From a virus, in IMG/VR virus record IMGVR_UViG_3300024520_000050, positions 96,001 through 160,000 of that record: 64,000 nucleotides of DNA; one strand, written 5' to 3'. The translations under genes and the position numbers were made by a program. Under the pieces are notes generated by a model. That model searched no databases. It was given only the letters and a program-made list of their open reading frames with translations, and was not told the origin of the DNA. Position 1 is the first letter of the stretch. Every line of letters begins with the position of its first letter. This document shows positions 54,488-59,569 of the stretch, in pieces.

Positions 54488-54494
54488 ATTTCAG

Positions 54495-54568
54495 GGTGCT
54501 CATTGAGAATTGAACTCAAATTTCATGAACCACAATCATGTGTCCTAGCCATTTGGACGATGAGTACC
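54495..54568 (-). tRNA. tRNA-His(GTG) with encoded G-1
   Basis: CAUGA-UUGUGGU-UCAUG; G-1 opposite C73. Confidence 0.9.
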
Positions 54569-54588: not shown

Positions 54589-55311
54589 TTATAATTTAGA
54601 ATTTAATCCTAAAGTTTTTATCCATTTTCTAATTGCATTGTCAGAAACATTATATAGTTTACCAGTTTTAACATAACCAAGTGCTTTAATTTGATTAATT
54701 AATGTTATTGGATCAGGCAAGCTTTTAATGTACTCTTGTCTTTTAAACGTCACACTACAGGGTTTGCATCTTCTTGATGATCTATAAATTTCTATATTGC
54801 AATCTATACATCCCCTAGTGATCTTTTTAATCTTCTTTTTGATTTTTGTATTCTTATGATTTTTACCACAGTAACTATCAGTTTGAGCATGACAATTAGC
54901 GCAAAGTATTTGAAGATTCTCTATTCGATTATCATTATTAACTCCATTAATATGATGTAATTCTAAAGGAGCTGGTTTTCCAAACCACTCACTTAAATTA
55001 CAGTTTTCGCATTGTTTTTGTTTGAAATCTTCTTTAAACAATCTCCTTTTTAAATTTGTTCTAGAACAAGTACTATTTTTAACAAGATATACTTCTATTG
55101 GCTTCTTAATAGAGTTAGTGTTCGTGCCTCCCTTATTCCAACTTTGACCTTTAAAATGAGAAGTATTTAAACTATGTTCTTTAATTTTGTTATGAATTAG
55201 CTCATAACTACTTCCACTGAGTGTCATTCCTAATATCCTACACACTTGAGCAAGTGATATACTATTACTAATTGCGTTTTCAATTTCTTTTTTTGTAAAT
55301 TTATATTTCAT
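54589..55311 (-). CDS. Free-standing HNH homing endonuclease in tRNA array
   Basis: CENC...LELHHINGVNNDNRIENLQILCANCH. Confidence 0.9.
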   Translation of the reverse strand: MKYKFTKKEIENAISNSISLAQVCRILGMTLSGSSYELIHNKIKEHSLNTSHFKGQSWNKGGTNTNSIKKPIEVYLVKNSTCSRTNLKRRLFKEDFKQKQCENCNLSEWFGKPAPLELHHINGVNNDNRIENLQILCANCHAQTDSYCGKNHKNTKIKKKIKKITRGCIDCNIEIYRSSRRCKPCSVTFKRQEYIKSLPDPITLINQIKALGYVKTGKLYNVSDNAIRKWIKTLGLNSKL

Positions 55312-55477: not shown

Positions 55478-55885
55478 TTACTTATCTTCTATGTCAAGTG
55501 AATAAATACCACTTAATTTATTTGGATCTAATGTCCAATTAGTACTAACTGATGTACTATTCATTATAGCTTTGCCATCTGTAATGTCATGAGAAACAAG
55601 ATTATCGCTACTATTAATAATATGAGTAGCTGGACTTCCAAAATTAAAATCACTATAATCATTACCATAATTAGTATAACCTGGAGAACCATACCACCAT
55701 CTATCCCAATTATGTGGAACATAAAATGGTCGTGTCCAATTAACTTTTTTAATCTTTGTATTAGGTAATAATTCCCAATCTTTCCAATCTGGTAGAATGC
55801 GTTTTATAGTTTTAATAAACATTGCTAAATTGCAAGCTTCGGGTAATAAGATTGTATTATTATCATAATCTAATTGTATTTTCAT
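55478..55885 (-). CDS. Hypothetical protein
   Basis: MKIQLD..N.TI...L.DWK.W pattern. Confidence 0.65.
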   Translation of the reverse strand: MKIQLDYDNNTILLPEACNLAMFIKTIKRILPDWKDWELLPNTKIKKVNWTRPFYVPHNWDRWWYGSPGYTNYGNDYSDFNFGSPATHIINSSDNLVSHDITDGKAIMNSTSVSTNWTLDPNKLSGIYSLDIEDK

Positions 55886-55906
55886 TTGTTAGTTGTTAGG
55901 TATTAA

Positions 55907-55986
55907 AATGATTGTAGACCGGTGACACTTGGTTAAAACTTTAGTAAGTCTGTGGGCGGTATTATTCCCATCTTATAACAATCATT
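55907..55986 (-). ncRNA. Unclassified three-way-junction RNA candidate
   Basis: 9-bp closing stem AAUGAUUGU/ACAAUCAUU with inner UGGG/CCCA and AGAC/GUCU stems. Confidence 0.45.
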
Positions 55987-56004
55987 GTATTTTAATTATA
56001 TTAG

Positions 56005-56077
56005 AGCCTCCGGAGGAATTTGAATCCACAACTTTTACCTTACAAGGGTAACGCTCTACCAGTTGAGCTACGGAGGC
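56005..56077 (-). tRNA. tRNA-Thr(TGT)
   Basis: UUACC-CUUGUAA-GGUAA; GCCUCCG/CGGAGGC. Confidence 0.92.
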
Positions 56078-56253
56078 TTTTATTATTAAGTTTAAAAAAG
56101 GGATAAACTCCCCACAACTCTTTTTTATATGTCTTGTTGTAAACAAGTGCAGACATCTCATACTTCGTGCAAAACGCTTCGCTTTAAAGATAAGACATAA
56201 AATTAAGTAACATGTAACAAAAACTTTATTAGTCTTTATTACATGTTTGTATA

Positions 56254-57102
56254 TTATAGTAATGAATTAATGATCTCTGATCTAGAAAATATAGGAGTTT
56301 CCACAACTTCCCACTTACTTCTAATTTTTACTACATCCTTAAAGTACACAGTTGTAGGATTAACTTGCCAATCTCCATTCTCTAATTGAAAAGCTTCATT
56401 ATTCACCTTATCATCCACATATTGATTCTTTACAATCAAACTACCTCTCTTCTTAGAAAAATGCAAGTCATTCCAATTATGTCCTTTCTGAAAACACATT
56501 TCTTGCATATCAGAACCATTCTTTAAATGTAATTCTTTATGTGAATATAATGATTGTGCTAACATAGCAATACTGTTCTTCTCTGCATCACGTTGACGTG
56601 CTACAAAATAGTTATTTATATCACTTTGTGGTATTGAAAATGCACGTGAATCGAAGTTCGCTAATTTTGGTAAATATGTTTGTTGAACTAATGAAGTTTG
56701 AAGTTCAATGATTTCTGGTTCTTCAGCAAAGCATTTTAAAAACCTCAACTGATTAAATATACCAGTAGCTAAACTAGCACTTACACTAGTCATCTTCTGA
56801 ACATTATAATTAAACCATGCTTCAGTAGTTAACTTATCATAATCAGTAATTAAAATACTAATTTCATCTGATTGTGTATAAGCAGCTTTAGCTCCTTGAA
56901 TGTTTTCACATAAATAAATAGCGGTTTTCTGCATATCTTCAATTAAACCCTCATCAAAAGGTTTATTTAATCCTTTAGTATAAGAACTAAATTTTTTTCC
57001 ATCAATACGACAGATAACTGGAACATGTCTAGATAAATAATAACGATTTCTATTTTCGTAATATTCTTTCATTCTAGTCATTATAGGGCATTTTCTACTC
57101 AT
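56254..57102 (-). CDS. Thg1-like 3'-5' nucleotidyltransferase (TLP)
   Basis: ICRIDGKKF, AYTQSDEIS, QKMTSVSAS, FDSRAF and RQRDAEKNS. Confidence 0.95.
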   Translation of the reverse strand: MSRKCPIMTRMKEYYENRNRYYLSRHVPVICRIDGKKFSSYTKGLNKPFDEGLIEDMQKTAIYLCENIQGAKAAYTQSDEISILITDYDKLTTEAWFNYNVQKMTSVSASLATGIFNQLRFLKCFAEEPEIIELQTSLVQQTYLPKLANFDSRAFSIPQSDINNYFVARQRDAEKNSIAMLAQSLYSHKELHLKNGSDMQEMCFQKGHNWNDLHFSKKRGSLIVKNQYVDDKVNNEAFQLENGDWQVNPTTVYFKDVVKIRSKWEVVETPIFSRSEIINSLL

Positions 57103-57107
57103 AATAA

Positions 57108-58043
57108 TTATTTTTTAAATTTCCAAATAAAATTTTTATATTTCTTTCTTTCTCCTCTACAACATTTTGATATTGCAGATGCATTAAAATTTAACTGTTT
57201 CTTAATTTCTTGTCCACTGTTCCATGTTTTTATTAAATTATTATTAAGATCGTACTGACATATTACTTTCTTCATATCCTTCGGAATGTATAAATTTGAT
57301 TTCCTTAGATGATTCTTAATAGAATTTATAGCAACATTATATTTTTTAAATAATGCATATGCAGATTCCCCATTAACATAGTCTTGTTGTATTATTGTAA
57401 ATAATTTTTCAGATGTAAATACAGGTTGCTTATTTATATAAGGTGAATAATCCCATTTATACGCATAACAACTTGGATAATTATTTCCAATATATTCTAA
57501 AAATGTTTTAGATTCTCTTTTACGTATTCTAATATAAGGTAGATTATTCTCATTATAATTAATTCTAGCTTTGAATTGAATAAGTTGATTACATAAAAAT
57601 TGATTATCATTTACAGTAAAGCAATAAGTTGCTAATTTTATATCTTCACTTCTTTTATTTCTAGAATTTCTTAGTAAACAACCATCCCCAATATACCAAT
57701 ATAAGCAATGTATTTTATTTAATACTAGACATAATGGTATTATTTTTATTCTATTAATATACCACAAGTGGTATATTTTTGTAAATTCAGGAAGAGATCT
57801 TGTTCGGAATACATAACTAGTGTAAGTTTTATTAGTTCTTTTATCGTACACTTTTCTTTTTAAAGGTCCAAGTTCATATACTGTTCCTTTTGCAAATTCT
57901 AAAAAATTAGAACTAACAAATTCACAATGTTCTTTTTGAGATGAAGTGTAAGAAAAGTATGCATTTTTAGCTTTCTTAGCTTTGATAATACAACCATCTC
58001 CCAATAAACATCCTTCTAGTATCTCTTTTTGTTTTTGATTCAT
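57108..58043 (-). CDS. Free-standing LAGLIDADG homing endonuclease with C-terminal NUMOD1 DNA-binding domain
   Basis: GCLLGDG and YWYIGDG; C-terminal QYDL.NNLIK.W.S...ISKCCRG..K.YKNFIW. Confidence 0.88.
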   Translation of the reverse strand: MNQKQKEILEGCLLGDGCIIKAKKAKNAYFSYTSSQKEHCEFVSSNFLEFAKGTVYELGPLKRKVYDKRTNKTYTSYVFRTRSLPEFTKIYHLWYINRIKIIPLCLVLNKIHCLYWYIGDGCLLRNSRNKRSEDIKLATYCFTVNDNQFLCNQLIQFKARINYNENNLPYIRIRKRESKTFLEYIGNNYPSCYAYKWDYSPYINKQPVFTSEKLFTIIQQDYVNGESAYALFKKYNVAINSIKNHLRKSNLYIPKDMKKVICQYDLNNNLIKTWNSGQEIKKQLNFNASAISKCCRGERKKYKNFIWKFKK

Positions 58044-58124
58044 TTTAATATGTATAATTAGTATAGTATGAATGACTTTCCATAAATATACACATTATAT
58101 ATTAATTATACGAATCAAACAATA

Positions 58125-58175
58125 TTAATCATAGTTCTCTTTCATGCGTTGCATGATTGGACAATTCTTACTCAT
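58125..58175 (-). pseudogene. 16-codon remnant duplicate of the Thg1 N-terminus
   Basis: MSKNCPIMQRMKENYD* versus Thg1 MSRKCPIMTRMKEYYE (11/16 identical); its ATG overlaps the radical SAM stop. Confidence 0.8.
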
Positions 58176-59058
58176 GATTTATTGATTTAAAATATTCACT
58201 AATCGTATAATCATTCCAGTTATACTTTTCTTTACTTCTACTTGATCTACTAAATGTTTGTTCTACAGCATTAATATAAAATGAATGTTCTCCTTGATAG
58301 AATTTATTCCAATTATCATCAGAAAATAATCTACGTAGCTTTAGTTGTTCTAATGCTAAGTTATCAAAACTAGTAATATCAAATGTTTTAATGCAGTGAT
58401 TTATCCACCACTTCCATTGTTGATGATTTAAACTATCAATGTCTACTTGTCCGGTATTGGCGCCGAAGTCTTTTTCTCCGAGTATGAGTAACTTTTTTAC
58501 TCCTTTGTTGTGTAATTCAATTACATCATTGATAGTATCAATGCCCATAATTACATGAAATACAGTGTTCTCATAGTTAAGTATTTCATTAGGTACATTC
58601 CAAGTTAAACTACTACGATATGATATACCTAATCCTTTGATTAAATCCATATCGATACATTTTAATATGTCAAATATATCACGTTTAATATGACCTTGAT
58701 TAACTGTAAGATTGCATATGAAACCTTTAATTTTACACCAAAATAAAAAGAACATTAAATTATGAGTTAATTTATTACATCCAATAGCTAATTCAATACC
58801 TGGTGGAATACCCTTTAATTTAGCTTTCAACGCAGTGTAATCACATTCTAATCCATTCACCTTAGCCGACTCATGACAGAAGCTACATAGCACATAGGAA
58901 CCGTTATCTCGTTGCCCAAATGAACATTGATTAGATACTCGTATGTCGATATTTAAAGGATGATCTAATTTCATAGAACCTTCAAATTCTATAATTCGTG
59001 TACCAACATTATCAATTGTAATAGAACAATTTCCATTATTATATTTAACTAATTGCAT
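58168..59058 (-). CDS. Radical SAM-like protein with expanded CX12CX2C motif
   Basis: IDIRVSNQC-SFGQRDNGSYVL-CSFCHE; later SYRS, FHVIMGI and SFDNLALEQL. Confidence 0.75.
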   Translation of the reverse strand: MQLVKYNNGNCSITIDNVGTRIIEFEGSMKLDHPLNIDIRVSNQCSFGQRDNGSYVLCSFCHESAKVNGLECDYTALKAKLKGIPPGIELAIGCNKLTHNLMFFLFWCKIKGFICNLTVNQGHIKRDIFDILKCIDMDLIKGLGISYRSSLTWNVPNEILNYENTVFHVIMGIDTINDVIELHNKGVKKLLILGEKDFGANTGQVDIDSLNHQQWKWWINHCIKTFDITSFDNLALEQLKLRRLFSDDNWNKFYQGEHSFYINAVEQTFSRSSRSKEKYNWNDYTISEYFKSINHE

Positions 59059-59068
59059 AGTTTAAAGT

Positions 59069-59569
59069 TTAATGATTATCATTATCTGTTTCTAATACTG
59101 AATTACTTGAGAATAAGAATGCTTTTACTAACTCTTTATCTTCAAATATATGATGAAGTTCTTCTCCGTCAACTGAACCATGATCTATTCCACCAGATTC
59201 CCATCCATAACTTTTATAAGTAACTGTCTTACCATTGTGTTCATATGATTTCATTTCATAGTTCATCATATCTTCTATATAAACAACAGATTTACATTGA
59301 GTAACTTCTTTGATACATTCTTCTAATGTACGAAAATGATCTTCTTCTTTATCATTAGACCAATCACGACAATAGATAGCTAAGTATGATGCTTTAGTGT
59401 CAAAATCATAATGATGATCTTGTTCCCACCCAAAATCTTGTGGATAAATGTTAATATCACCATTCTCATCAGGAGTTGGTATATTATTTAATGTATCATT
59501 TTCACTGATACTTATACTATGACAACTACTCGAGTTTGTCTCAAATACTCTTTTTCTTACTACTTTCAT
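59069..59569 (-). CDS. Conserved hypothetical FETNSSS-motif protein
   Basis: RKRVFETNSSSCHS, IDHGS and C-terminal DNDN. Confidence 0.75.
   Translation of the reverse strand: MKVVRKRVFETNSSSCHSISISENDTLNNIPTPDENGDINIYPQDFGWEQDHHYDFDTKASYLAIYCRDWSNDKEEDHFRTLEECIKEVTQCKSVVYIEDMMNYEMKSYEHNGKTVTYKSYGWESGGIDHGSVDGEELHHIFEDKELVKAFLFSSNSVLETDNDNH

Follow-up and report, generated by a model that had tools for sequence, protein, structure and literature searches.

The 64-kb stretch of viral DNA analyzed here (the window, bases 96001–160000 of a 178.4-kb virus record rated complete by CheckV) carries a free-standing homing endonuclease gene (HEG) of the LAGLIDADG type, positioned between a short copy of the thg1 5' end and an intact thg1, a tRNA-His guanylyltransferase-like gene. 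We put the probability at about 0.8 that this arrangement arose when a free-standing LAGLIDADG cassette invaded a resident thg1 by double-strand-break repair, a form of homing that uses no intron. All genes of the locus are read from the minus strand, in the order Fe-S-type gene, 16-codon open reading frame (ORF), 81 nt, LAGLIDADG HEG, 5 nt, and intact thg1. The Fe-S oxidoreductase-like gene (58168..59058, 296 aa, PHROG 16999, E 1.7e-27) has a stop codon that overlaps the ATG of the short ORF as ATGAGTAA. The short ORF itself (58125..58175), MSKNCPIMQRMKENYD followed by TAA, appears to be the stranded 5' end of the resident thg1 and thus the scar of the invasion. It is followed by an AT-rich spacer that includes the HEG leader (58044..58124, 81 nt), the HEG (57108..58043, 311 aa, PF03161, E 3.9e-25), a gap of 5 nt (ttatt, 57103..57107), and the intact thg1 (56254..57102, 282 aa, PF04446, E 1.7e-26), which starts with MSRKCPIMTRMKEYYEN; the spacer and the gap were read directly from the sequence. 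The coordinates and sequences that the original prediction had given for the remnant, the HEG and thg1 are all as described there.

The HEG has its own start and stop codons, lies outside any intron and is present as a single copy in the 178.4-kb genome. Its product is comprised of a double-motif nuclease core at residues 7–181 (PF03161) and a C-terminal tail of the NUMOD/I-HmuI-like DNA-binding type, with PHROG matches to 11023, 20162, and 7140. The motifs G15-D16-G17 and G119-D120-G121 are invariant across 16 homologues, as is characteristic of double-motif LAGLIDADG proteins, and the intact ORF with its conserved catalytic motifs is predicted to encode a site-specific nuclease. The product of the intact thg1 (PHROG 4717, E 3.2e-76) has the Thg1 domain, with the catalytic residue D34 and the S78-D79-E80 motif in invariant columns. 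The public gene call for this gene (P0087, 275 aa) begins at Met8. The ATG at 57102 is favored as the start because the sequence MS.xCPIM (57081–57102, minus strand) is conserved in homologues.

The remnant and the intact thg1 start share 11 of 16 residues and 32 of 48 bases (67% identity at the DNA level). Five codons differ non-synonymously and six synonymously, the latter being exactly the six listed in the original prediction, whose count of 11 matching residues was also correct. Local alignment of the Thg1 N-terminus to the 500 nt upstream of the HEG gave a score of 62, which was reached by 0 of 200 shuffled sequences. Comparison with the 118 closest Thg1 homologues indicates which of the two copies is likely to be native. 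The remnant agrees with their consensus N-terminus (MSKNCPIMQRMKENY) at 15 of 15 positions, while the intact copy deviates from it, and for this reason the remnant looks resident and the working start foreign. The differing codons, which had been described as recoded, are most simply explained by ordinary divergence of a foreign donor allele and not by deliberate recoding.

To determine the genomic context of this endonuclease family, relatives were gathered by HEG similarity alone from IMG/VR and metagenome contigs (loci are referred to by L numbers). Homologues with at least 35% identity adjoin the 5' end of thg1, except for L036, L038, L041, L086, L101, and a few with short flanks. Most of these HEGs lie directly upstream of thg1 on the same strand and a few point away from it; in most loci examined the spacing ranges from an overlap with the thg1 start to a gap of 6 nt, with ~27 nt in L024. 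A FastTree phylogeny of 79 representatives places the window HEG in a clade of 25 (support 84), and 20 of the 23 clade members with enough flanking sequence adjoin thg1. On a Thg1 tree built from residue 46 onward, the presence of the HEG changes at least 14 times. A HEG of the window type was found at 3 of 92 phage thg1 loci, and empty sites are therefore the rule.

A thg1 5' remnant also stands upstream of a LAGLIDADG HEG in at least four other lineages, reading MKDELGDR in L023 (identical to L080), MDKTTLGDRMK plus 2 nt in L028, MNKNDSLGDRMK in L093, and MAVKDELGTRLKEN*E in L100, where the asterisk is a stop codon. The L029 and L024 groups have possible decayed remnants. HEG-less relatives are available for two lineages; in both, the remnant corresponds to the allele of the resident gene, and it is the intact 5' end that is foreign. 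The clearer case is L028, for which the HEG-less relatives L226 and L229 come from the same sample. The left flanks are 97–99% identical over ~800 nt up to L028:3800, where identity breaks in the codon after R-M-K. In L028 the insert opens with a 17-nt leader and continues with the HEG and then with a thg1 start encoding a new N-terminus (MSNNRDS...), whose ATG is overlapped by the HEG stop. A 20-nt thg1 block comprising the L-G-D-R-M-K codons is found on both sides of the insert. The ~90 nt beyond this block contain 27 mismatches and a 6-nt indel relative to the HEG-less relatives, before identity returns abruptly to at least 97% exactly at the D-G-K-S-F-H codons. These sharp boundaries indicate that the HEG and ~34 foreign thg1 codons came as one block. 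The pair L023 and L205 is arranged in the same way, with lower identity overall: the remnant matches the empty allele at 24 of 25 positions and the intact thg1 start is heavily diverged from that of L205. Presence and absence of the HEG together with co-converted thg1 sequence are thus directly visible in these two lineages. The central proposal of the original prediction, that a HEG entered thg1 without an intron and kept the gene whole by supplying a divergent 5' end in replacement, is supported by this independent comparison of sequences, namely by the linkage of HEG and thg1, the recurrent remnants, and the filled and empty pairs.

Some of these loci show irregularities in thg1 itself. The right junction of L028 (L028:4860-4885) contains a 6-nt insertion with an in-frame TAG (…IIIRL*LDGKSFH…), and the invasion seems to have broken thg1 at this point, unless the TAG is read through. 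L088, L087, and L032 were considered as truly split thg1 genes and rejected, since thg1 begins after the HEG in all three; L088 is frameshifted instead. In L017 (11180–11921, minus strand) a thg1 starting with MSKHCPIMTRMK… is divided into two ORFs 40 nt apart, which could reflect a frameshift, an assembly error or a small insertion.

The endonuclease probably recognizes and cuts thg1 at about codons 31–41 (R-I/L-D-G-K-A-F-H), around the catalytic Asp. It is in this region that the imported tract of L028 ends, with its small insertion scar. The motif D-G-x-x-F-H, in the reading D-G-K-A-F-H, is present in 74 of 79 HEG-less alleles and altered in 13 of 25 LAGLIDADG-linked alleles (Fisher p 1.9e-6), including 10 of 10 alleles of the window subclade (p 5.9e-10). 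At the equivalent position the window has C-R-I-D-G-K-K-F-S-S-Y (56980..57012), compared with R-I/L-D-G-K-A-F-H-T-Y in HEG-less alleles, and the L029 group reads D-M-R-A-G-H. A sign test on phylogenetically independent pairs gave ~6 concordant, ~0 discordant, and ~2 not differing (median p 0.031). In P0091 and P0096, which are 89% identical and known here as proteins alone, there are 4 differences within the first 110 residues, and 3 of these turn KAFHT into KKFSQ. At the DNA level the putative target, GAY GGN AAR GCN TTT CAC AC, is nearly invariant among HEG-less genes, and conservation of that kind is usual for homing sites (PMC3984707). The codon changes at K-A-F-H, which in the window give K-K-F-S, plausibly confer immunity to the endonuclease. 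A replacement of Asn by Phe or Tyr before the invariant Y-E was also considered as an immunity mark and discarded, because HEG-less alleles carry FYE, NYE, and YYE about equally. The original prediction had placed the insertion ~16 codons into thg1; this position holds for the left junction, but the probable target lies farther into the gene, at codons ~31–41.

The extent of the foreign sequence in the window thg1 can be estimated from its fit to related proteins. Residues 17–45 have an identity of 0.58 to the 30 nearest homologues, compared with 0.81 among these homologues themselves, whereas for residues 46 onward the corresponding values are 0.62 and 0.63. Strongly conserved positions deviate in 6 of 22 cases within residues 17–45 and in 12 of 137 elsewhere (p 0.02). 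Together with the analogy to L028, this outlier segment suggests that the donor-derived tract probably comprises codons 1 to ~41 (56980..57102). A longer import, in which the phage acquired the complete HEG-thg1 module or a conversion tract spanning the entire thg1 and only the first 16 resident codons survive, is improbable but is the alternative that fares best. There is no close relative with which the right boundary could be mapped in the window phage, and the intact copy keeps the C-P-I-M start, so that the donor would belong to the same Thg1 clade and its contribution, if long, would be difficult to recognize. However, it is only residues 17–45 that are aberrant, with normal values thereafter, and the sole tract that can be mapped, that of L028, is short at ~34 codons.

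The same slot is also occupied by nucleases of other families. In L176, L189, and L222 the gene between the thg1 remnant and the intact thg1 is of the GIY-YIG/NUMOD1 type; in L206 such a gene precedes thg1 without a remnant, and L224 also has a gene in the slot. HNH genes are found between remnant and intact thg1 in L213 (2155-2980) and L223 (2019-2990), with the remnants MKDDLGERMK… and MEDDLGKRMK…, respectively. Most remnants at the GIY-YIG and HNH loci end directly after the R-M-K codons. These scars bear on the possibility that the HEG is an old intergenic resident and that the mini-ORF goes back to a local event unrelated to the HEG, in which the thg1 start was duplicated or rearranged. 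Several clade members, among them L020 and L022, in which the HEG sits cleanly between an unrelated gene and thg1 with no remnant, are consistent with such a history. We nevertheless regard it as very improbable, as DNA identity between the two copies in the window is only 67%, it is the intact copy that deviates and the remnant that is typical of the clade, remnants flank HEGs in at least four other LAGLIDADG lineages as well as GIY-YIG and HNH cassettes, and the filled and empty pairs show remnant and HEG arriving in one event.

Two further features of the GIY-YIG loci concern the slot itself. In L189 (2150–3010) two successive partial thg1 starts precede the nuclease gene, which suggests serial invasion. 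In the same locus the working thg1 start codon lies inside the last codons of the nuclease gene and gives rise to an N-terminal extension (MDTNGKYSK…), which is also present in L206, L222, and L224.

An Rfam scan of 55500–59500 at E<=1 returned no intron, only a tRNA gene (tRNA-Thr by ARAGORN) and two weak sub-threshold matches, and the non-coding DNA around the HEG amounts to 81 nt upstream and 5 nt downstream, which bears out the earlier remark that there is no room for an intron core. Neither a ribozyme core nor exons that join to one gene were found at the window locus. A group I or other intron that carries the HEG, and whose splicing would join the mini-ORF as exon 1 to thg1, is thus the least probable alternative, with a negligible share of our confidence, even though the Pfam family of the HEG is often intron-encoded and the mini-ORF has a thg1 start translationally coupled upstream, because the downstream thg1 has its own complete start, which repeats the supposed exon 1 rather than continuing from the mini-ORF, and the empty-site comparison of L028 with L226 reveals a 20-nt duplication and not a clean intron insertion.

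Intronless invasion by break repair would account for the window locus as follows. In the ancestor, thg1 would have been located directly behind the Fe-S-type gene, with its ATG overlapping the Fe-S stop. The endonuclease of a co-infecting donor phage would have cut this resident thg1, probably at codons ~31–41, and repair would have copied the donor leader, the HEG, and the donor thg1 5' end, from the start codon to about codon 41. This tract would then have been joined in frame to the resident thg1 body; as a result of the in-frame join thg1 would stay whole and be read 5 nt behind the HEG. The left end of the break would have been chewed back and joined at about codon 16, so that the first 16 resident codons would survive as a dead mini-ORF that has kept its coupling to the Fe-S-type gene. 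With the target core altered to K-K-F-S from K-A-F-H, and with a remnant that does not contain the target, the occupied locus would presumably not be recut.

A conserved sequence in the HEG leader may be connected with this process. The motif TGTGTATTTATGGAAAAG is common to HEGs of the window type, where it lies 13–15 nt 5' of the ATG and has an invariant core in 8 divergent loci. In the window it reads TGTGTATATTTATGGAAAG and lies at 58094..58076 (minus strand), farther from the HEG ATG than in the relatives. When the motif was slid along 68 HEG-less thg1 genes, the best match fell at one fixed place in 46 of them, beginning 8 nt 5' of the catalytic Asp codon, and this was achieved by 0 of 300 shuffled motifs. 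The leader motif is thus a putative mimic of thg1 codons ~31–37. It may be a relic of the original left target half that is kept for annealing, or alternatively it may serve as an operator or promoter; autorepression at an operator resembling the enzyme's own homing site is a property of I-TevI. A role as a general phage promoter was dropped, since the motif occurs once in the 64-kb window, and a short upstream ORF starting from an ATG inside the motif was dropped because this ATG is ATA in L022 and L079. The 54 nt from the TAA at 58127 to 58074 were also considered as decayed thg1 codons 17–38 and aligned no better than shuffled sequences (p 0.4–0.6). Three members of the thg1-linked HEG clade, L041, L086, and L101, are located away from thg1, with the leader motif retained in L041; these HEGs may have moved to new targets.

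Several observations weigh against the proposed invasion or against parts of it. No HEG-less sibling of the window phage was found in any collection searched, and for lack of such a relative the event in the window is reconstructed by analogy to the other lineages. The best homologues among 5.8 billion proteins are 66% identical for Thg1 and 61% identical for the HEG, and a search of the annotated phage collection likewise found no close relative of the window phage. The best relative of the Fe-S-type gene is 59% identical and comes from a genome without thg1. The original prediction had suggested looking for relatives in which the upstream gene is directly joined to thg1; the relatives of the Fe-S-type gene in L001–L005 (55–59% identity) carry other genes downstream instead, and thg1 is absent anywhere in these five records. 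The position of the left junction varies by lineage, falling at codon 8, 12, or 16, or at about codon 16 with a stop. Illegitimate joining after resection may have produced this junction, or the donor may have carried an older remnant with which a crossover took place, or a longer remnant may have been shortened by deletion later on. The ~30–34 nt between the remnant and the leader motif in the window gave no alignment, to thg1 or otherwise, and are not accounted for by the proposed invasion. With regard to the target, which rests on correlation, the H-type motif is kept in some HEG-linked alleles (L034, L100, and L130). In L028 the D-G-K-S-F-H codons survive to the right of the junction, and the L028 subfamily may therefore cut a few bases farther 5'.

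The recurrence of this layout raises the broader possibility that the thg1 5' end hosts a general, context-independent type of mobile element, in which the nuclease gene has a copy of the target 5' end on either side, a stranded one (or else the leader mimic) on the left and a working, immune one on the right. Any phage thg1 could then be invaded by means of homology within the gene alone and would remain functional with neither intron nor intein, LAGLIDADG, GIY-YIG, and HNH enzymes would each have adopted the design, and the leader mimic would be functional as an annealing arm or an autoregulatory operator. We offer this generalization tentatively and consider it rather doubtful in its full form.

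Intronless homing with a carried gene terminus is already known from fungal mitochondria, and here it is mirrored to the 5' end of a gene in phages. The fungal elements termed mORFs make gene hybrids in atp6 of Allomyces macrogynus and in atp6, atp9, cox2, and nad3 of Glomus sp. (PMC3630166), and partial duplications of atp6, cox1, and the atp9 N-terminus have been described beside free-standing HEGs (PMC7487136). In both situations a LAGLIDADG (or GIY-YIG) ORF enters a conserved gene and carries a divergent foreign terminus, so that the gene stays whole, and what remains of the native terminus is a pseudogene fragment. Similarity to close relatives is seen for the native fragment but not for the carried terminus (63.5% versus 91% in Glomus atp6, compared with 67% between the two window copies). 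The endonuclease ORF, the carried terminus, and the displaced native terminus of an mORF-type hybrid are all found in the window. In contrast to the organellar elements, which mostly act on the 3' end and often have the ORF fused in frame, the window cassette belongs to a phage and concerns the 5' end with the start codon. The window HEG is a separate upstream ORF, and thg1 expression must pass through it or re-initiate after it. The window cassette works like an mORF, but it is not a member of this group of mitochondrial, in-phase, 3'-end elements.

Homing by free-standing nucleases without introns is also familiar from phages. The classic T4 enzymes are GIY-YIG nucleases in the case of Seg and HNH nucleases in the case of Mob. 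As in the window, SegF, SegG, SegB, and mobE of T4 are free-standing HEGs beside their target gene; the donor serves as the template for repair of the cut HEG-less allele, the flanks are co-converted, and sequence differences protect the donor itself (PMC3984707, PMC2988022). The classic cases differ in that they depend on synteny at both flanks and do not leave a second copy of any part of the target, whereas here a LAGLIDADG enzyme is involved, one side appears to be joined inside the target gene, and a stranded gene start is left. A further likeness exists with the HEG islands of phage ICP1, where small genes beside phage HEGs are fragments of neighboring essential genes (PMC10055350). Barth et al. 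suggested that such fragments are recombination substrates and reported that the HEG content of the slot is unstable (PMC10055350); thg1 and the replacement-terminus architecture with mapped junctions are not part of that study. Target-like sequences flanking HEG ORFs are known from I-TevII/sunY (Loizos et al.) and form part of the collaborative-homing model of Bonocora and Shub (reviewed in PMC3984707). The leader motif, with its resemblance to thg1 codons 31–37, is comparable with such a short target-like sequence at the HEG border, although no intron is present here and the mimic is putative. No paper linking Thg1 with homing endonucleases was found in the literature.

The window is AT-rich, with about 30% G+C, and carries 13 tRNA genes. 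The upstream gene had been labeled radical SAM, which is a guess, because the gene matches PHROG 16999 ('Fe-S oxidoreductase') only and a Pfam search gave no match even at E<=5. Upstream of this Fe-S-type gene there is always a gene whose product begins …FETNSS(S/T)CHS (window 58168–59569, minus strand; L001:5510-6900; L002:5010-6894), and the two form a conserved two-gene module; in L002 the partner gene is tandemly duplicated inside one ORF. A second free-standing nuclease, an HNH gene (PF01844/PF13392, window 54589–55311, minus strand), lies ~2 kb from the thg1 cassette in a tRNA cluster, between tRNA-His and tRNA-Leu. By manual reading, the phage tRNA-His (window 54494–54568, minus strand) has an encoded G at position -1 and the discriminator C. 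As G-1 is already encoded, the phage may not need Thg1 for its addition to the phage's own tRNA-His, and thg1 may instead serve another purpose here, such as 5'-end repair.

The arrangement described here illustrates a way for a HEG to settle in an important protein-coding gene with no need of an intron or intein, namely by bringing along a spare and putatively cut-resistant gene start. The occurrence of three unrelated nuclease families at the same place suggests that thg1 is a recurrent landing pad in uncultured large phages. It is the conserved codons of thg1, rather than genome synteny, that appear to supply the homology for spread between unrelated phages, and short gene segments would thereby have a concrete route of mosaic exchange. 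The predicted target, ~20 bp in length, surrounds the codons for the catalytic Asp in thg1, and the leader motif is a candidate regulatory or recombination motif. In genome annotation, a short 'orphan' ORF that precedes a phage HEG may represent a stranded gene start.

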